A DNA stretch of 64,000 bases from an uncultured virus (IMG/VR IMGVR_UViG_3300028327_000658) (Duplodnaviria > Heunggongvirae > Uroviricota > Caudoviricetes), in IMG/VR virus record IMGVR_UViG_3300028327_000658; one strand, 5' to 3'. Positions within the stretch are counted from its first letter, which is position 1, and the number at the start of each line of letters is the position of its first letter. A program made the translations under genes and the position numbers. This document shows positions 2,296 to 53,653 of this stretch, in pieces. Under the pieces are notes generated by a model. It did no database searches and was not told where the DNA came from. It saw nothing but the letters and a program-made list of their open reading frames with translations.

Positions 2296-2532
2296 TCACG
2301 CCTTTAAGACTTCATCTACTGAAAGATCGGTTAGTTCGATGATCTCGTCCACACTCATGCCTTTGGCTTTAAGGCGACGCGCAAGCTTTATACGCTCCTC
2401 TAACTTTGCTTCTTGCGCCGCATTAGCGAGTGCCGACGCTTCGTTGTGCTTCGCACGTTCTCTTTGACGTACCATCTCCCTGAATTCGGGCGACGCAGCC
2501 ACATTGTGATATGCTTCTACTAACTGTTCCAT
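2296..2532 (-). CDS. Putative internally initiated RpnS antitoxin (78 aa, in frame with rpn)
   Basis: AGGAGG (2540-2545) lies 7 nt upstream of in-frame ATG 2532, the same Met that starts the downstream stand-alone copy. Confidence 0.65.
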   Translation of the reverse strand: MEQLVEAYHNVAASPEFREMVRQRERAKHNEASALANAAQEAKLEERIKLARRLKAKGMSVDEIIELTDLSVDEVLKA

Positions 2533-3123
2533 AGGCTCTCCTCCTATAGTTTTGATTTTTGACAGCTGTTCTTCGGTTTTCGCGTTAATCGCGGCAAGCC
2601 ACAATTCTACTTCGTCGTTTACGTCAAGATTCTCGATTTTCGGCAGTTTAGGCAACTCGAAGTAGTGCAGCGACATCTTATCCGTAAGCAAAGTATGGCG
2701 ATTGACTTCCATCGGTCGAAATTCTGAGTGTAAGTCATTGACATCCTTGAAGAGTTTGAACCCTATAATGTTTATAAGAATCGTACGCGGCAAAGCGGCG
2801 TATTCTTGAGCGACGTGTAGCGCGTTCGAGTATGCACGTGCCCAATAGTAAAGCGACCGTTCCGGGTAATCATGCTCATCCTTGACCTGCACCTCCAAAT
2901 TGACCCGTTCGCCGTTCACCTCCATGTTAATGTCGAGGCGGCAGAACTTGTCATCCACGTCATCGCACGGAGGCATCTCCGGATTGGTTATCTTAAATTC
3001 GGCTATTCCGTCGATTGGGATACCCAGTATCTTCGCGACTAACCTCTTCAATAACTCCGGGTACTTCACGAACAGCATCTTGAACAAGGTGTCATTTGTG
3101 AGGTTGTATAGTAATTCGGCCAT
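2296..3123 (-). CDS. rpn: Rpn family PD-(D/E)XK nuclease (recombination-promoting nuclease/putative transposase)
   Basis: NDTLFKMLF, RLDI..VNGERVNLEVQ, ERSLYYWARAY, HYFELPK and the typical tail AKGMSVDEIIELTDLS. ATG 3123 has SD AAGGAG. Confidence 0.9.
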   Translation of the reverse strand: MAELLYNLTNDTLFKMLFVKYPELLKRLVAKILGIPIDGIAEFKITNPEMPPCDDVDDKFCRLDINMEVNGERVNLEVQVKDEHDYPERSLYYWARAYSNALHVAQEYAALPRTILINIIGFKLFKDVNDLHSEFRPMEVNRHTLLTDKMSLHYFELPKLPKIENLDVNDEVELWLAAINAKTEEQLSKIKTIGGEPMEQLVEAYHNVAASPEFREMVRQRERAKHNEASALANAAQEAKLEERIKLARRLKAKGMSVDEIIELTDLSVDEVLKA

Positions 3124-3146
3124 AAAAGTCTCCTTTATATGCTTAT

Positions 3147-3176
3147 AATATACATTACGGCACGTTCCCCGGTCAA
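3147..3176 (-). promoter_or_regulatory. Sigma70-like promoter of rpn
   Basis: TTGACC-18-TATATT. Confidence 0.55.
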
Positions 3177-3185
3177 CTTTTATTT

Positions 3186-3434
3186 TCACCTATTGTTCAC
3201 TGATTCCATAGGCACGTCGTACCCCGATAACCACGCGGGGCTTACACGCAGCGCAACGGCCATAACGTAAACGGCGGAATGCCCGACCTCATAACCCCTG
3301 CCGGCATACTGCTCGATACGATGCTCGCCTATCCCCGTTTGACGCGACAGCTCCGCCTTTCCGACCCCTCTTATATCCATAGCCCGGCGAAGCCGCTCGT
3401 CAAACGCCTCGATTCTACCCTTAAATTCACTCAC
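3186..3434 (-). CDS. XRE-family helix-turn-helix regulator
   Basis: ERLRRAMDIRGVGKAELSRQTGI...IEQY...MAVALRVSPAWLSGYDVPME; GTG start with SD AGGAG. Confidence 0.85.
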   Translation of the reverse strand: MSEFKGRIEAFDERLRRAMDIRGVGKAELSRQTGIGEHRIEQYAGRGYEVGHSAVYVMAVALRVSPAWLSGYDVPMESVNNR

Positions 3435-3519: not shown

Positions 3520-3665
3520 CCGCCAAAACGTCACAGCGGCCACGCCAGCCCGCAAATTTCAGTCCACGCGCCCGCGAAGGGCACGACCTAAACCGCCAAA
3601 ACGTCACAGCGGCCCCGCCAGCCCGCAAGTTTCAATCCACGCGCCCATGAAGGGCACGACCTAAA
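3520..3665 (-). CRISPR. Orphan type I-C CRISPR-repeat-like tandem (2 repeats: 3629-3660 and 3556-3587); no cas genes in the window
   Basis: Minus strand GTCGTGCCCTTCATGGGCGCGTGGATTGAAAC and GTCGTGCCCTTCGCGGGCGCGTGGACTGAAAT: 32 nt, 7-bp hairpin, GGAYTGAAAY end. They are separated by 41 nt and form a 73-bp unit duplicated with 5 differences. Confidence 0.8.
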
Positions 3666-7306: not shown

Positions 7307-7729
7307 TTAAAACATGTAATTTAGACCGCCGCCAATACCGTAATTGCTTACAGTGAAAGAAAACGCGCCGGCTTGTATTGATAACGCAATGTAATAATCT
7401 ACCCTGAAATCGCCATACGAATGCAAATAATACAGCGTCCCGGCTGAAACACCGGGACGCAAAATCGGCATAAGATAGTAAAAATAGCCGCCATAAAATC
7501 CGTACGCGGTTTCAATCCCCGCACCCGCATGGGGCGCGACAAACACAAGAACCCCGCTCTCATAATACTCAAATTTACGCTTATCGGGTCGCAACATATA
7601 CCCGGCAGTCGCAAGATAGGCATCCTCCTCCGTACTCCACGCTTTTTGGCCTCCCACCGCGATTCCGGCTGCACAAGCAACCCCGTGTAAACAAATAACA
7701 AAAAACACAAAAACAAGATATTTTCGCAT
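7307..7729 (-). CDS. Small outer-membrane beta-barrel-like protein (TraO-like position)
   Basis: Start MRKYLVFVFFVICLHGVACA is a signal peptide; alternating aromatic/Gly strands; C-terminal GGGLNYMF beta-signal. Confidence 0.55.
   Translation of the reverse strand: MRKYLVFVFFVICLHGVACAAGIAVGGQKAWSTEEDAYLATAGYMLRPDKRKFEYYESGVLVFVAPHAGAGIETAYGFYGGYFYYLMPILRPGVSAGTLYYLHSYGDFRVDYYIALSIQAGAFSFTVSNYGIGGGLNYMF
7509..7540 (-). repeat. Solitary type I-C CRISPR-repeat-like element inside a CDS
   Basis: GTCGCGCCCCATGCGGGTGCGGGGATTGAAAC (32 nt, stem CGCGCCC/GGGTGCG), translated in frame as VAPHAGAGIET. Confidence 0.8.
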
Positions 7730-24658: not shown

Positions 24659-25701
24659 AATTGCAAAAACCTTTCCGAATTAACAATAACATCGTCCAAG
24701 CTATCCATTTGATAAAACATACTACGCTCAGCTTGCCCCGGAAAACTGGATATATATTGCTCAGTCATAACGTTCGTATGTACATAAACCGATAACTCGT
24801 TCGCCAACAGAACATTCTTCATATCTTCTAATATCTTTGCAAAATTTTTATCGTCGCTGCCAAACATCAGAACATTATTATAAAAACACAATCGCATTGA
24901 ATCTATCTTTCTTAGTCTAAATTCGTCATCAACATCAACCTCTCTATTCAAGCCGTCTACTAAGTGAAACACTCTCTCAAAGCTCTCTCGACAAACTTCC
25001 GCATACTGATCTGATGGAACACACACTGAAAACACCTGCAAATAATCGAACTTATTCAATATGCCGCTACACTCAATATCGCTTAAATCGTTCAAAGAAG
25101 ACATCCCCAATACTCTGTTCTCGCCCAGCCGAAGCACCTTTTTTTCATCCACACACGGAACGCTTTTTAAGACAATTTCATCATTTTCTACGCCGCAATT
25201 CAACAAAAAATCATGTACTTTACTGACAAAACGCATCGGCGACAACATTTGAACACCGTCGTCTGAACACAGCAACTTTTCAACCCCGGCGACAACCGTG
25301 CTTGTCGCGTCATCAATTTTTTTTAAACTATCCTCGCTCCCGCGCAAAAACCACTTAGAAACCTCAAAAAAAGCACTTTTTAACACAGAATAATCCATAT
25401 ACGCCTTTATACAGCCCCAATACTGCGTAATTCCAGATAACCGCAATTTATAAACTTGCAATGTTGATCGAAACGTCAAAAACTCAGTTACTTTCCTCAC
25501 AAAACCCTCAAAAACCTTGATCTGAAAATAAAAAACAACCGCCCCGTCATTCGATATACAGTAACTATTCCCGTTTCTATCCACGCCGTTAGACGACACC
25601 TCACAGAAAAAAGGAAATAGGTCGGAATGTGTTATATTGATAACACCGTGCCCGTCATTCTCTTGGAATAAGTCAATCCTTTCCTTCAGAGCCGTTTTCA
25701 C
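24655..25701 (-). CDS. Hypothetical protein resembling the VirB4 N-terminal domain without the ATPase domain
   Basis: C-terminal QYISSFPGQ parallels VirB4 AYFSLLPGN at a comparable position; no Walker A. Confidence 0.4.
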   Translation of the reverse strand: MKTALKERIDLFQENDGHGVINITHSDLFPFFCEVSSNGVDRNGNSYCISNDGAVVFYFQIKVFEGFVRKVTEFLTFRSTLQVYKLRLSGITQYWGCIKAYMDYSVLKSAFFEVSKWFLRGSEDSLKKIDDATSTVVAGVEKLLCSDDGVQMLSPMRFVSKVHDFLLNCGVENDEIVLKSVPCVDEKKVLRLGENRVLGMSSLNDLSDIECSGILNKFDYLQVFSVCVPSDQYAEVCRESFERVFHLVDGLNREVDVDDEFRLRKIDSMRLCFYNNVLMFGSDDKNFAKILEDMKNVLLANELSVYVHTNVMTEQYISSFPGQAERSMFYQMDSLDDVIVNSERFLQL

Positions 25702-26874: not shown

Positions 26875-27888
26875 CTAAAATGTAATGCTGTACCACACCA
26901 AATAACCGCCTAAACCCAATCCCGCCGCCATAAATCCAAGTCCAAGCCCCGTATGCAAGTCTACATCCCCTTTCAGCTCCTTTAACCGCTCCTGCCCGGC
27001 CGCGTAACCAACGCCGACCGCTTTCGGATCATAATCGTTGTACTCCTTCGCCGAACCCGCCCACCTGCCCATATAAAACGCCCCGGTAACCGCGCAACCG
27101 AGCGCAATCGGCCCCAAAACCTTCAGCCGCTGCGGGAGGCGCATCTTCCCCTCTGCCGCCTTATAATCCGCGTTTAACGGCGGTTTCAATTCACGCGTCT
27201 GCGACGACGCGACATAATCAATCGGAACCGCCGAGACCGCCGGGGTCGCCGGAACCGCCGAGACTGCCGGAACCGCTGGAACAGCCGAGGTCGCTGGAGC
27301 CACTGGAGCCGCCGGAGCCGCTGAGGCCGCTGGAACCGCCGAAGCCGACACGACAGGTGTCTTCTCTGCCGGTGTTTTTTCGTAACGTATCGGCGGCTCG
27401 TAAGTTATCGGCTCCCTGTCAAAGACCGTAAACCGTTTGTCCCTTATCTGCAAATTCACCCCGTTCGCCCAAAACGAGGTATTTAAGAGCTTAATATTAT
27501 CGCCGCAGCAAGACTTAACGCCGACGCTGGCATTGGATATCGCCGCATACCGGATATCGACGGTTCCGCCCTGGAACACCTTAATCCCGGCCCAGTCATG
27601 CGGAGCTCCGGCGCCCGATTTAGCCCGTAACGACATCAATAACACCGGTTCCTGCGGCTTCCCGTCTATGATCAGCGTCCCCTTTACGTCCAATCCGGCA
27701 AGCGGGGCGAAATACACCTTCAACCCCGCCGGGATAACCAAGCCGTCCCCAGGTTTGACCTCGTACGACTCCTGAACGATAAAGATACCCTCTTTTTCGT
27801 CGTACTTGGCAACCCGCTCAATGGACAATAGCTCACCAAAAGACCCTGTCACAAACAAACAAAAAACAAAAAATAGCTTAATCCTCAT
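26875..27888 (-). CDS. Secreted beta-helix-like protein with Ala/Pro/Val linker and C-terminal hydrophobic segments
   Basis: VKPGDGLVIPAGLKVYF..LDVKGTLIIDG..EPVLLMS..WAGI pattern; repeated SAVPA linker at about 27225-27350. Confidence 0.6.
   Translation of the reverse strand: MRIKLFFVFCLFVTGSFGELLSIERVAKYDEKEGIFIVQESYEVKPGDGLVIPAGLKVYFAPLAGLDVKGTLIIDGKPQEPVLLMSLRAKSGAGAPHDWAGIKVFQGGTVDIRYAAISNASVGVKSCCGDNIKLLNTSFWANGVNLQIRDKRFTVFDREPITYEPPIRYEKTPAEKTPVVSASAVPAASAAPAAPVAPATSAVPAVPAVSAVPATPAVSAVPIDYVASSQTRELKPPLNADYKAAEGKMRLPQRLKVLGPIALGCAVTGAFYMGRWAGSAKEYNDYDPKAVGVGYAAGQERLKELKGDVDLHTGLGLGFMAAGLGLGGYLVWYSITF
27183..27213 (-). repeat. Solitary type I-C CRISPR-repeat-like element inside a CDS
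   Basis: GTCGCGTCGTCGCAGACGCGTGAATTGAAAC (31 nt, perfect stem CGCGTC/GACGCG), reads VASSQTRELK. Confidence 0.7.
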
Positions 27889-31686: not shown

Positions 31687-34209
31687 TCAATTAAACACAT
31701 ACTCCACCTTTTTTGACTCGCAATTCAACCGCAACCGCGCCGGAAAAACCTTTCCGCCCTTTTTGACCGACACAAACCCATCTATCTTATCCCGCGTCTC
31801 CCCGCTCAAAAACAGTTCCCTCACCACCGCCTCGGTCACATTCGGACTTCCGTTTTTATATATAACAAACCCGCACTTCGCCCTCTCACCGCAACACGCA
31901 AATCCGCTGTCGTTTTCCACCATAGGCGAACCGCAAAATTTACATTTCAAATCCAGCTTCTTTACCTCTCCCCCGACAGCCGACTCCAACTTACCGCTCT
32001 TATCATCCAAATACACCATTATATCATACTTTTTACCGGCCTTGCTTACCAAACCGGATACTTTCACCTGTTCGCCGCGAAACAGCTTCTCTAACATTTT
32101 TCTGTTGACCGCGTTATCTTTACCCCTAAACTTTTTATATACAATAAACTCACAGCCGCTATAATCATACGTCCCTTGCTCATTCTTCACACTCTTACGG
32201 TTTTCACAAACAAAGACACTCTCCGTCTCGAATATCGCCCCGCCGCACTTCCGGCATTTCAATCCCGTGTCTTCACCGCGTTTTTCGGCCCACGGCCACA
32301 CCACCTTGCCGACCAGCGGCCGCATATCTTCCGTAAATTCTTTGCAAAACGCTCCAAATCCACGGCAAAATTCCTCCAAACTAAGCTCGCCGCACTCGAC
32401 CAATTTCAGCTGTAACTCCATTTCCGCTGTAATTTCCGGTGTTTTCAGCTTAAACGGCATCACCTCTTCGATCAGTTTACGCCCTTTTTCCGTTGACCGA
32501 TAGCTGCCGTCTTCTTCGACGATATATCCGACATCTTTGAGCGTGTCAGGGAACGACGACTGCGTCGCCGGTGTCCCTATGCCTTGCGTTTCCGACAGCA
32601 TCTTCTTATATTTCGGGTTAATCACATCCTTGCCGCATTTCTGCATGGCCGTCACCAGCGTCGCTCCGATATAATATTTCGGCTTCGAACGCTTAATTCT
32701 CGGTAAATCCATATCATCTAACCCCGCCAGCAAACCACGTAACTTTTCCTCGTTCAGCCGTTCCGACATCTCCTCCACTGCTTCGCCTTGCTCGTCGCTT
32801 TCTTCTTCTTGTTTCAATCCGCGCGTCTGTAACAACGCGACATAATCCAAATACCCGCGCTCCAAATTCACCTTGACAGATGCCCGGAAAACTGCCGGTT
32901 CCGCCCATTCTATCGCCGCCGGCTCCCCCGCTCTATCCTCTTCTATCTCCAATTTATATTGCAAATACCGATTCGACGCCATGAACGACACTATCAATCG
33001 ATTTTTAATCAATTCGTACAAATTCAAGTGATCCTTTGTAAATTCCTCTTTTTTAGCACTCTTCAACGCCTCAACCGACACACCGGTCGGCGCTATCGCC
33101 GTATGCGCGGACTCCGTATTTTTCACACAATCCGGTTTCACCGTTTCAGCCACCAAATACTTCCGTTGGTCAGCGTCCGCCAGCTCCCGCACCAAACCGT
33201 GATATATCGCCAAATCGCTCTCAGGCATACACGATGAATCTGTCCTCGGATAAGTCACAAGTTTCCACTCGTACAAATCCTGCAACAACGCATCCGTCTT
33301 TTTCAACGGGAGTTTCAACTCCTTATTCGCCGCTTTCTGCAAATCGGCTATATTAAACGGATGCGGAGGATTCTTTATTCCCTCGGCTTCCGAAAATTCC
33401 TTCAACTTAAACTTCCTGCCCTCCAGCATTTTCAACACCGACTGCAAATCAGACTCGCTTTCAAACTTCGTTTCCTTGCCCCGACAGTACAAAAACTTTA
33501 TCCCTGCCCACTTCCCGCGCAACTGATAATAAAACGATTCCTTATATCCCTCCACCTCCTTATCCCGATCAACTATCATCCGCAACACCGTCGTCTGCAC
33601 ACGGCCGACGGATAATCCGTACTCCCCGGTCACGGCGGCTGCCGCCCGACTGCCTGTCATACCGACTTCCCAATCCGCCAACGTACGGCCGGTACACGCA
33701 TCCGCCAGATTTTTGTACTCAGACAAATCTTTCATGGACGACCAGCTCTTATCCAAATCGCTGTCAGTCAAACTCTTGGCCCACAGCCGCAACATCTTAG
33801 GCCGCTCCATTTTGTAAAAACCGAATAACCTCGAAAATATCCCTTGACCCTCGCGGTCGGGGTCAGTCGCGCAAATGACTGTGTCGCACTGACTCGCCAA
33901 TTCACATATTAAATGGCCGCGATCTTCTTTGGATTTATCCGTAAATTTATACGGCAACCTGCTCAAATCTTCCAGCAATATAGGCAAATACTTAAATCCC
34001 GTACCCTTTTCTCTATACTTCTTGTCATAGTCGCCAGGCAACGGTAAACCAAGCAAATGCCCGAAACACCACGTTATATAGTAGTTCGCCGACTCGAAAT
34101 ATCCCGACTTCTTCGCAAACTTCTCGCCGCCGACGTTACGCTCCACCATTTGCACGTAAATCTCGGCCTGAGAGGGCTTTTCAGCCACTAATAACGTTTT
34201 TCCTGACAT
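31687..34209 (-). CDS. topB: DNA topoisomerase III (type IA) with C-terminal zinc-ribbon repeats
   Basis: AEKPS, TWCFGHLL, ATDPDREG, SVGRVQT, catalytic LVTYPRTDS, GIGTPAT. Confidence 0.96.
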   Translation of the reverse strand: MSGKTLLVAEKPSQAEIYVQMVERNVGGEKFAKKSGYFESANYYITWCFGHLLGLPLPGDYDKKYREKGTGFKYLPILLEDLSRLPYKFTDKSKEDRGHLICELASQCDTVICATDPDREGQGIFSRLFGFYKMERPKMLRLWAKSLTDSDLDKSWSSMKDLSEYKNLADACTGRTLADWEVGMTGSRAAAAVTGEYGLSVGRVQTTVLRMIVDRDKEVEGYKESFYYQLRGKWAGIKFLYCRGKETKFESESDLQSVLKMLEGRKFKLKEFSEAEGIKNPPHPFNIADLQKAANKELKLPLKKTDALLQDLYEWKLVTYPRTDSSCMPESDLAIYHGLVRELADADQRKYLVAETVKPDCVKNTESAHTAIAPTGVSVEALKSAKKEEFTKDHLNLYELIKNRLIVSFMASNRYLQYKLEIEEDRAGEPAAIEWAEPAVFRASVKVNLERGYLDYVALLQTRGLKQEEESDEQGEAVEEMSERLNEEKLRGLLAGLDDMDLPRIKRSKPKYYIGATLVTAMQKCGKDVINPKYKKMLSETQGIGTPATQSSFPDTLKDVGYIVEEDGSYRSTEKGRKLIEEVMPFKLKTPEITAEMELQLKLVECGELSLEEFCRGFGAFCKEFTEDMRPLVGKVVWPWAEKRGEDTGLKCRKCGGAIFETESVFVCENRKSVKNEQGTYDYSGCEFIVYKKFRGKDNAVNRKMLEKLFRGEQVKVSGLVSKAGKKYDIMVYLDDKSGKLESAVGGEVKKLDLKCKFCGSPMVENDSGFACCGERAKCGFVIYKNGSPNVTEAVVRELFLSGETRDKIDGFVSVKKGGKVFPARLRLNCESKKVEYVFN
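32811..32841 (-). repeat. Solitary type I-C CRISPR-repeat-like element inside topB
   Basis: GTCGCGTTGTTACAGACGCGCGGATTGAAAC; 26/31 identical to the 27183 copy, with the same GATTAT 5' flank; reads VALLQTRGLK. Confidence 0.6.
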
Positions 34210-37661: not shown

Positions 37662-38154
37662 AACCCGTTTCTAAGCACGAAAACCGCGTTTTTGACCCTG
37701 TTTTGACCGCCTCTCACGCCGCCGAATCCGATGAAAACCGGCTCCGGGCGGTCTTCCCGCGCTTTCCTCGCGGCGTGATGCGCGTCTTCAGCCCTAATTT
37801 ATTTTTAATATTTTTTGGGGACGGGGACATTCCTGTCCCCGTAACGCCCGTTGGGTAGCTCGCCGCCGCCGGCGGCGAGATTCAGGTTTCTTAGTCTTAA
37901 TTATTACAGCAACAATCAGCAATAAAATTTTTCGGTACCCGATTCCCGCTCGCAAAGTACCATTTATCCTATGCGTCAACATAAACATGTTGACGCAAAT
38001 ACAGTCTACGAAAGAAAACCGTCCGCTTTCGATGCATTATCTTATTTTATCATAACGGCTGCCGCCACGGTTCCCTTTCGTGCGCCGGCCGTTGGCGGGG
38101 CGGGTTCACCGCCCTGCCCTCCCCTAAACTTTTTTAAAATAATTAAAAAAATAG

Positions 38155-43196: not shown

Positions 43197-43513
43197 ATGG
43201 TACCCTAAAAGCGGAGATGGTACCTTGATTGCGGAAAAAAATGGTACCTTGAAAGCGGGGATGGTACTCTGAAAGCGGAGATGGTACCCTAATTGCGGAA
43301 GTGATGGTACCCTGAAAGCGGTGATGGTACCCTGAAAGCGGTGATGGTACCCCAAAAGCGGTGATGGTACCCCAAAAGCGGAGAAAAATGGTACCCTGAA
43401 AGCGGGGATGGTGCCCTGAAAGCGGGGATGGTACCCTGAAAGCGGAGATGGTACCCTGAAAGCGGAGAAAATAACCTCCAAAAAATAATCTGAGAATAGT
43501 ACCCTGAAAGCGG
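43197..43513 (+). repeat. Iteron array (14 copies of ATGGTACCCTGAAAGCGG), candidate oriV
   Basis: 13 copies at mostly 20-bp (some 23-24-bp) period from 43197 to 43465, plus one at 43496-43513, directly upstream of rep. Confidence 0.9.
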
Positions 43514-53316: not shown

Positions 53317-53340
53317 AGTAGGGGAGAGACCCAAAACCCC

Positions 53341-53653
53341 CGCCGCCGATCGGCCGGCCGCCTCCGGCTTGGCTGTGTCTCGCCCCCCGCCGCCGATCAG
53401 CCGGCCGCCTCCGGCTTGGCTGTGTCTCGCCCCCCGCCGTCGATCGGCCGGCCGCCTCCGGCTTGGCTATGCTTCGCCCCCCCGCCGCCGATCAGCCGGC
53501 CGCCTCCGGCTTGGCTGTGTCTCGCCCCATGCTGCCGATCGGCCGGCCGTCCCCGGCTTGGCTATGCTTCGCCCCCCGCCGCCGATCGGCCGGCCGCCCC
53601 CGGCTTGGCTGTGTCTCGCCCCCTATCGCCGATCAGCCGGCCGCCCCCGGCTT
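53341..53653 (+). repeat. GC-rich 47-bp tandem repeat (about 6.6 copies)
   Basis: Unit CGCCGCCGATCRGCCGGCCGCCYCCGGCTTGGCTRTGYYTCGCCCCC starting at 53341, 53388, 53435, 53483, 53530, 53577, 53624. Confidence 0.95.

Follow-up and report, generated by a model that had tools for sequence, protein, structure and literature searches.

A genuine repeat unit of the CRISPR type I-C kind was found inserted in frame and in sense orientation in the gene of a small barrel protein, which is carried by a plasmid lacking cas genes. Solitary CRISPR repeats on mobile elements are a known kind of element. New are the in-frame, translated placement of such units in three genes of one plasmid, the occurrence of three repeat variants alongside an intergenic mini-array, and an alteration of the cleavage determinant that recurs systematically among the in-gene copies. 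In the literature, as searched by title and abstract, in-frame translated repeat units were not found described. The five units identified are tentatively interpreted as solitary repeat units of the Racr kind, here intragenic, which may act as decoys against host CRISPR systems; this interpretation is regarded as plausible, if just short of probable.

The repeat units are located on a conjugative plasmid

Judged from its gene content, the window, i.e. the whole 64-kb stretch of DNA that was analysed, is a conjugative plasmid. Genes for transfer functions (TrbI/VirB10, TrbL/VirB6, a VirB4-type ATPase, TrbC pilin, a coupling protein and a TrwC relaxase) were identified. Maintenance and accessory genes comprise those of ParA, SSB, topoisomerase III, a resolvase and a polyvalent protein of 2039 aa, and an array of 20-bp iterons is present as well. 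No Cas proteins were detected among the 48 ORFs with PADLOC, the output of which consisted of just a weak N-terminal match to RmrA, nor in Pfam scans of the 64-kb window. The description as a mobile element without cas genes refers to the 64 kb seen, and the longest record of the element is 77 kb. The GC skew is strong, and every gene in the region from 2 to 38 kb lies on the same strand. Near-identical DNA was present in termite-gut metagenome runs from several studies.

A type I-C repeat is translated as part of a small barrel protein

The focal repeat and its host gene are:

7509..7540, minus strand: focal solitary type I-C repeat unit; 44.7 bits; C18T and T22G compared with the array repeat
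7310..7729, minus strand: gene of a 140-aa signal-peptide protein, a predicted eight-stranded outer-membrane beta-barrel (family alignment, AF2)

The repeat is the 32-mer GTCGCGCCCCATGCGGGTGCGGGGATTGAAAC, which at up to 3 mismatches has its sole match within the 64-kb window at 7509-7540 on the minus strand. In the shuffle control, matches were obtained in 0 of 100 cases, with an expected count of 0.00. The 32-mer is in phase 0 of the ORF 7310-7729, and its translation VAPHAGAGIET corresponds to residues 64-74 of the protein. The claim of the preliminary description that a near-canonical I-C repeat is read in frame within a gene is confirmed; the gene is real, and the repeat is 2 nt from an array repeat.

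According to PMC8524198, the stem of a type I-C repeat has 7 nt and carries a pentaloop, with overhangs of 2 nt before and 11 nt after it, and the repeat is cut after nt 21 by Cas5c, which cleaves at the 3' base of such hairpins. Recognition by Cas5c of B. halodurans is described there as centred on U22-G23-G24; the exchange U22G nearly abolished cutting by BhaCas5c in vitro, and cutting by SmuCas5c (S. mutans) was slightly lower. In the focal copy this architecture recurs: a 7-bp stem closed by a 5-nt loop is preceded by a 2-nt 5' overhang and followed by an 11-nt 3' tail, which ends in ATTGAAAC. RNAfold predicted a stem of 7-8 bp, a loop of 5 nt and a single-stranded tail of 10-11 nt, and the hairpin was also formed when the repeat was folded within the surrounding sequence. 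With the array repeat of type I-C systems, the substrate of Cas5c/Cas5d (PMC8524198), the focal copy thus shares the length of 32 nt, the architecture and 30/32 identical positions. It differs from it in being solitary, without spacers, leader or cas genes, in the G at position 22 and in one G.U pair in the stem.

Both substitutions fall within codons. At position 18, T instead of C changes GGC to GGT, which is synonymous, and turns a G-C pair into a G.U pair. At position 22, which immediately follows the Cas5c cut site, G instead of T changes TGG (Trp) to GGG (Gly), and the copy reads G22-G23-G24 in place of U22-G23-G24. A cut by Cas5c would be expected after nt 21, i.e. between window positions 7520 and 7519. 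The hairpin and the terminal sequence had been described as intact; this holds for the fold into stem, loop and tail, where T at position 18 keeps a G.U pair, but not for position 22, which is G and not T.

The G+C content of the repeat is 69%, compared with 40-47% in the flanks. The nearest other repeat copy is located 3.8 kb away, and no partial repeat was found within 100 bp. With neither spacers nor cas genes nearby, the focal copy is a single copy in a gene and not a member of an array. On the minus strand between 7000 and 9300 the only promoter-like site was 7875-7848, ∼310 nt upstream of the repeat.

Relatives of the host protein were obtained from two protein sets, with four at 48-57% identity in a set of 5.8 billion proteins and 29 representatives in one of 1.84 billion. 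The family alignment comprised 24 full-length members, the window protein and 23 homologues. No Pfam match was obtained for the barrel protein, and for both this protein and the 337-aa protein described below no relative was found in species genomes or viral contigs. An AF2 model calculated with 5 sequences was unusable (pLDDT 38.1), and instead the model based on the 24 sequences was used (pLDDT 87.8, pTM 0.73). It shows a signal peptide, a helix at residues 2-18, eight antiparallel strands and a C-terminal aromatic residue, the C-terminus being YMF. The top matches of the model in the PDB were OmpX, the transmembrane domain of OmpA, PagP and designed transmembrane barrels, with TM-scores of 0.5-0.59 and weak E-values of 0.01-0.1. 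In the predicted fold the protein therefore shares signal peptide, eight strands and C-terminal aromatic residue with OmpX, OmpA-TM and PagP, but not membership of a sequence family, and the outer-membrane protein proposed earlier is supported at the fold level only.

In the alignment of the 24 members, in-frame conservation resumes on either side of the repeat. At the repeat site all 23 homologues have an unrelated, longer loop of ∼21 residues, and the repeat-encoded peptide is present in 0 of 23. A second loop of ∼14-17 residues, found in 23/23 homologues, is missing in the window protein, which with 140 aa is the shortest full-length family member. The alignment of orthologs, proposed earlier as a check, thus identifies the segment as an insertion: the repeat swaps the variable loop of ∼21 residues between strands 3 and 4 for a short Ala/Pro/Gly turn. 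The suggestion that a repeat was inserted and tolerated is borne out, as both the frame and the flanking conservation are kept. The peptide had also been placed within a beta-strand. In the model, however, APHAGAG (residues 65-71) forms the turn between strands 3 and 4, and it is V64 and I72-T74 that are part of strands. By the usual topology of such barrels, this connection would be a surface loop. The exchange T22G would also be explicable by a preference of the protein for Gly over Trp in the tight turn.

A conserved or ancient dual-coding segment was considered as well and is ruled out by the absence of the peptide from 23/23 homologues; dual coding under RNA-level selection, the other earlier suggestion, may apply to the insert itself, which no orthologue carries.

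Chance resemblance or a chimeric assembly can practically be discarded as the origin of the repeat. The record is a metagenome assembly and nothing else was found in favour of such an artefact; against it, 30 of 32 positions are identical to real repeats at a shuffle expectation of 0.00, and both the reading frame and the family homology run on through both sides of the repeat. The identical junction was present in a second assembly (L001) and in a 35-kb Logan contig of run X1. A contig from another sample covers 7488-7697 without differences, extending only 21 nt past the repeat on one side. All copies of the plasmid found in other assemblies were identical, and contigs of four runs showed no variant at the focal repeat.

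The focal repeat belongs to a widespread family of array repeats

A scan of species genomes with a degenerate pattern spanning the three 32-nt copies of the window resulted in at least 121 loci, mostly arrays of 10-90 copies, from many phyla. Among the 121 loci listed, the nearest repeat was 2 nt from the focal copy in at least 16 and 2 nt from the mini-array copy 3629-3660 (see below) in at least 14. The array repeat at distance 2 from the focal copy forms arrays of 10-74 copies. When spacers of the 121 array loci listed were compared with the window, nothing beyond chance matches of 15-20 nt was obtained. Rfam at gathering thresholds gave no match.

The canonical form of the focal repeat was identified as a solitary, intergenic unit in 4 viral contigs, and in the three related ones no ORF runs across it. 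Viral contigs yielded no natural repeat corresponding to the 31-nt variants of the plasmid (see below). None of the other solitary I-C repeats, located at 13 species-genome and 4 viral-contig loci, was clearly inside a long ORF, and among those 13 + 4 loci a second intragenic case outside the plasmid family was not found. The plasmid database contained no relative of the 5-kb region, and the two repeats gave weak or partial matches only. Contigs of a termite-gut run contained two sequences at least 80% like the focal repeat with 32 letters between them, and in the same run repeats resembling those of the mini-array (≥80%) were 34 letters apart. Judged from these contig sequences, the spacing of 32 and 34 letters is that of true arrays, here within the same community.

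Further I-C-like units are present on the same strand

Four further I-C-like units on the same strand had been overlooked in the preliminary description, as had the U22G exchange of the focal copy. Together with a possible sixth copy they are:

3629..3660, minus strand: mini-array repeat 1, intergenic, starting 19 nt after the ssb stop; canonical UGG kept; 48.5 bits
3556..3587, minus strand: mini-array repeat 2, intergenic; 73-bp unit; 47.2 bits
27183..27213, minus strand: 31-nt I-C-like unit in phase 0 (VASSQTRELK), in the hypervariable linker of ORF 26875-27888 (337 aa); 41.7 bits
32811..32841, minus strand: 31-nt I-C-like unit in phase 0 (VALLQTRGLK), in the variable acidic linker of topoisomerase III (31687-34209); 42.4 bits
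25573..25597, minus strand: possible sixth, degenerate copy, weak; shortened hairpin and TGGATAGAAAC tail; 19.1 bits, E 0.014

A regular expression for the I-C architecture matched 5 times on the minus strand and never on the plus strand; the average over 300 second-order Markov simulations was 0.037. A covariance model scored the five copies, which are also its training set, at 41.7-48.5 bits and found one additional match only, at 25573-25597. All five units, and possibly six, are sense-oriented, and the three in-gene copies are all in phase 0.

The 41-nt 'spacer' of the mini-array (3588-3628) recurs with 97% identity after repeat 2. Because of this duplication, the locus is read from its sequence as a tandem duplication of the repeat with its flank. 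For the 82-aa ORF after the mini-array no Pfam match was obtained. Targets of the mini-array 'spacer', or of the 48 nt following each in-gene repeat, were found neither in the window nor in the loci compared.

In both 31-nt variants a 6-bp stem encloses a 6-nt loop and is followed by a tail of 11 nt. A direct repeat of GATTAT flanks the 45-nt insert that contains the copy at 27183, and 3/3 homologues lack the linker. The copy at 32811 lies in a stretch that is unalignable with topoisomerase III of E. coli. The nearest orthologue of the enzyme, 72% identical over the region, has DYLKGKGQ where the window has DYVALLQTRGLKQ, and the copy is present in 0 of the 7 nearest homologues. In the simplest reading, this copy would be a 24-nt insertion beside existing Leu-Lys codons (TTGAAA). 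The GATTAT hexamer also precedes the 32811 copy, and its occurrence at both sites suggests microhomology-mediated copying within the plasmid.

All in-gene copies are thus located at indel-variable sites and are present in 0/23, 0/3 and 0/7 of the nearest homologues, respectively. Positions 22-24 read UGG in both intergenic copies, GGG in the focal copy, and CGG and UGA in the other two in-gene copies. The hairpin is maintained in every copy, twice via a G.U pair rather than a mismatch. In a covariation test 97% of the cells were paired, a value that was also reached by 212 of 500 shuffles and is therefore not above the controls.

A homologue of the 337-aa protein encoded on another contig (P0050, 45% identity) has the predicted N-terminus MPAGAWIET just before the true start, and AGAWIET is what the 3' part of the canonical repeat encodes in phase 0. 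The related element therefore appears to carry a repeat unit directly upstream of the same gene, elsewhere in the same operon; this upstream repeat and the boundaries of the topoisomerase III insertion (P0008) were read from protein sequence only. In the related elements L002 and L003 (28.6 kb), the covariance model detected no repeat unit.

The repeat units as candidate RNA decoys

Solitary repeat units are known from viruses and plasmids, and many of them act as RNA anti-CRISPRs (Camara-Wilpert et al., 2023, PMC10651486). RacrIC1 is described there as a repeat unit of subtype I-C that follows acrIC5 after 11 nt, forms one bicistronic RNA with it and inhibits I-C interference. The same source states that SRUFinder masks ORFs and that intragenic matches, which form its false-positive set, are treated as probable false positives (PMC10651486). 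The plasmid shares with Racr elements such as RacrIC1 a host-type repeat on a cas-less element, the retained hairpin and tail, and the subtype I-C. The copies adjacent to ssb are located 19 nt after the gene, similar to RacrIC1, which follows acrIC5 at 11 nt on one RNA. Unlike Racr elements, three of the copies, including the focal one, lie within genes, where they are translated in frame, with no promoter of their own identified; the changes in U22-G23-G24 and the presence of several diverged variants on one plasmid are further differences. The Racr setting, which is intergenic, directly behind a promoter and expressed as a small non-coding RNA, does not apply to the focal copy, which sits inside ORF 7310-7729. 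The ssb mini-array thus fits the known Racr kind well, and the in-gene copies are outside the published definition. With the mini-arrays of viruses described in PMC11656645, the ssb locus has in common two repeats around one 41-nt 'spacer' on a cas-less element. It differs from them in that this 'spacer' is duplicated after repeat 2, is longer than the spacers of the community and has no match in the sequences compared.

If the units act as decoys, they would be transcribed inside plasmid mRNAs, and type I-C hosts would recognise the hairpin with its 11-nt tail, first through Cas5c and subsequently through Cas7/Cas8c. The Cas proteins would be held in unproductive complexes, resulting in less interference and priming against the plasmid. 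The in-frame positions would be explained by the transfer operon being tightly packed with little intergenic space, so that loops and linkers would be the sole tolerated sites. The changes of UGG (U22G, CGG and UGA) could result from selection that spares the mRNAs from cutting while the hairpin stays; alternatively, a Trp codon may have been removed at the protein level. The focal copy may be a weaker decoy that is bound but not cut. The UGG pattern fits equally with uncleavable decoys and with decay or neutralisation of harmful insertions.

The decoy interpretation is favoured because the repeats are real and not due to chance (5 versus 0 matches of the regular expression; 0.037 when simulated) and because their source family is real, with array repeats 2 nt away in at least 16 and at least 14 of the loci listed. 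In line with a decoy, 4 viral contigs carry the focal type of repeat as a solitary unit between genes, and no Cas protein was found among the 48 ORFs. The same holds for the location of the in-gene copies at indel-variable sites and their absence from homologues, for the hairpin kept in all copies despite their divergence, and for the focal insert of exactly one repeat unit plus one base without a spacer remnant. The four independent sites and the site in the related element are all in sense orientation. All three frames on the antisense strand of the repeat are free of stops, so that coding constraint alone would not impose this orientation. Further arguments come from the P0050-type element with a repeat unit elsewhere in the same operon, from the array-like contigs in the termite-gut run, and from the precedent of RacrIC1, whose distance to acrIC5 resembles that of the mini-array to ssb.

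The decoy interpretation is weakened by the definition of Racr candidates as intergenic and promoter-proximal, and by UGG being altered in 3/3 in-gene copies and kept in both intergenic ones. The pairing of 97% is no better than in shuffles, and covariation is thus not demonstrated; the orientation, the same at 4/4 sites, is confounded with the gene strand in the 2-38 kb region and with GC skew. The lack of the 31-nt variants in viral contigs and of a unit in L002 and L003 also argue against it.

In an extended form, which is considered unlikely, the coding mRNAs themselves would be uncleavable dual-coding Racr elements. Abundant operon transcripts would then soak up Cas5c/Cascade while the mRNA is spared, and together with the cleavable ssb mini-array they would form a multi-variant set of decoys against several gut I-C systems. 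That the three intragenic copies are real insertions has been demonstrated, and the same plasmid bears an intergenic copy of classical appearance. Should the intragenic copies act as decoys, RNA anti-CRISPRs would be incompletely catalogued and coding sequence could bear an anti-defence RNA signal; the in-gene copies with altered UGG and the intergenic copies with UGG kept would then be a natural experiment on binding versus cutting by Cas5c.

Alternative explanations for the repeat units

It is also possible, although rather doubtful, that the units are functionless scars, derived from host arrays by illegitimate or microhomology recombination, or spread within the plasmid, and tolerated since. 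Such scars would survive only where they are harmless, i.e. in frame, free of stops and in surface loops or linkers, which agrees with the finding that the in-gene copies are all at indel-variable positions and that homologues lack them. The GATTAT direct repeat around the 27183 insert, the same hexamer before the 32811 copy and, as a partly interpretative point, the DYLK of the topoisomerase III orthologue are also in line with this origin, and the high G+C content of the focal repeat relative to its flanks makes it look recent. The alteration of U22-G23-G24 in 3/3 in-gene copies and in neither intergenic copy would represent decay, or would result from selection against the cutting of transfer-gene mRNAs by Cas5c. 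A random crossover with an array, however, would not be expected to leave one repeat unit and one base without any spacer remnant. Sense orientation at four independent sites and at one in a related element, three different repeat variants gathered on a cas-less plasmid, and a hairpin kept in every copy, twice by G.U, likewise speak against scars. If the units are scars, they would record repeated DNA exchange between CRISPR arrays and the plasmid, and would show that an I-C repeat is readable as a serviceable beta-turn.

Two further roles have a low probability. At the level of DNA, the units might provide short homologies for recombining with, integrating into or disrupting host I-C arrays. 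Array integration is among the roles suggested for solitary repeat units in work cited in PMC10651486, the units have one common orientation, and arrays with similar repeats are present in the same community. Nevertheless, this is judged improbable: 31-32 bp with at least 2 mismatches are short for homologous recombination, the contigs examined contained only array-like joints and no plasmid-array junction, and the conservation of hairpin and tail across diverged copies would not be required. A regulatory role, in which host Cas5c cuts transfer-operon mRNAs at the repeats and the conjugation genes thereby respond to the presence of a I-C system, is very improbable. The sense copies inside three transfer-region genes and the cutting of such hairpins at their 3' base by Cas5c (PMC8524198) would suit it, but the trinucleotide needed for cutting is altered in 3/3 in-gene copies, the opposite of the expectation, and a benefit to the plasmid is not evident.

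A second hairpin in the barrel gene

Downstream of the focal repeat, the barrel gene contains a second structure:

7435..7460, minus strand: strong hairpin, 48 nt downstream of the focal repeat; perfect stem of 9 bp (10 with G.U), 8 G-C pairs, U-rich tail

This hairpin was flagged by a terminator scan and sits where the second loop of the homologues is missing. Its sequence is not repeat-like. The fold of the region 7415-7545 has a z-score of -2.9. The other two in-gene copies have no matching hairpin within the following 60 nt. Repeat, 48 nt of the most conserved coding sequence and hairpin together form a layout that resembles a crRNA-like unit.

An intragenic crRNA-like unit, composed of the repeat, the 48 nt and the 7435-7460 hairpin, might be loaded by the I-C Cascade of the host and target or silence the unmodified allele on related rival plasmids, comparable to viral mini-arrays; this is held to be a highly unlikely function. 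The PAM of type I-C systems is of the TTC type (PMC8406640), and the plasmid's own copy would be safe as the repeat occupies the place of the PAM. The guide of 48 nt is longer than the community spacers of 32-34 nt, the second hairpin is without an I-C tail, no target was found among the loci compared, and U22G may impair handling by Cas5c; the lack of a corresponding hairpin after the other two in-gene copies adds to these objections. On the other side, the two hairpins are 48 nt apart at exactly the two sites that differ from 23/23 homologues, the family is most conserved in the segment between them, and the fold of the region has the z-score of -2.9 given above. Virus mini-arrays, moreover, are reported in PMC11656645 to target mostly relatives.

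In the window as a whole, 11 distinct perfect hairpins of at least 9 bp were counted, compared with a simulated mean of ∼3.

Solitary Type I-C Repeats and Possible Traces of Repeat Copying

Truly solitary type I-C repeats, defined as those with a second copy absent within 300 nt, were found in genomes of many phyla among the matches listed in the species-genome scan.

Solitary type I-C repeat loci of the scan: L010, L011, L020, L023, L036, L046, L062, L066, L077, L101, L111, L113

At none of these loci was the repeat clearly located within a long ORF.

P0050, which is encoded on another contig, is an orthologue of the product of the 337-aa ORF 26875-27888, and its predicted N-terminus, MPAGAWIET, precedes the true start MKRIL. 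This peptide is what the 3' portion of a type I-C repeat encodes, and, judged from the protein sequence, it implies that a repeat unit lies immediately upstream of the gene in this related element. In the 337-aa gene itself, the repeat-bearing insert (27135-27219, minus strand) is flanked on both sides by a GATTAT direct repeat. The same hexamer is present at 32842-32847, directly before the repeat unit in the topoisomerase III gene. As GATTAT is common to these two sites, microhomology-based copying between them is suggested.

Hairpin in the Barrel Gene

Within the gene for the predicted outer-membrane beta-barrel a perfect 9-bp hairpin (10 bp when one G.U pair is counted) was observed, separated by 48 nt from the preceding in-frame repeat.

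7435-7460, minus strand: G+C-rich hairpin with U-rich tail, terminator-like by scan

Its position is the exact site of the missing loop, which is kept in 23/23 homologues.

ORF Beyond the Mini-Array

About 120 nt 3' of the two-repeat mini-array an 82-aa ORF is located.

3186-3434, minus strand: 82-aa ORF

No match was obtained for its product in Pfam, and with PADLOC a weak match to the N-terminus of RmrA was identified (E 1.3e-4). When read by eye, the sequence looks like that of a putative helix-turn-helix regulator. Regulators occur beside anti-CRISPR genes, and the ORF near the mini-array is reminiscent of this arrangement.

Replication Candidates and Other Repeats

Two regions may relate to replication or transfer.

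43197-43468: 20-bp unit ATGGTACCCTGAAAGCGGAG, about 13 copies, upstream of a 534-aa ORF
37821-37997: three perfect hairpins of 9-11 bp, clustered, intergenic, at a sign change of the GC skew

The 20-bp units and the 534-aa ORF, for which no family match was found, are probably replication iterons and a Rep gene, and the hairpin cluster may mark an origin or a site related to transfer.

Further features are listed here.

53337-53653: 47-bp G+C-rich tandem repeat, 6.7 copies, with an excisionase-like HTH gene on one side and a resolvase gene on the other
2180-2297 and 2420-2538: 119-bp direct repeat, 91.6% identity
55937-62056, minus strand: 2039-aa polyvalent protein with RadC/JAB, PBECR3 nuclease, ADP-ribosyltransferase and Toprim domains

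One copy of the 119-bp repeat lies within the PD-(D/E)XK transposase-like ORF 2296-3189, and nearly all of the second is located immediately past its 3' end. In conjugative elements, polyvalent proteins of this type are frequently associated with counter-defence.
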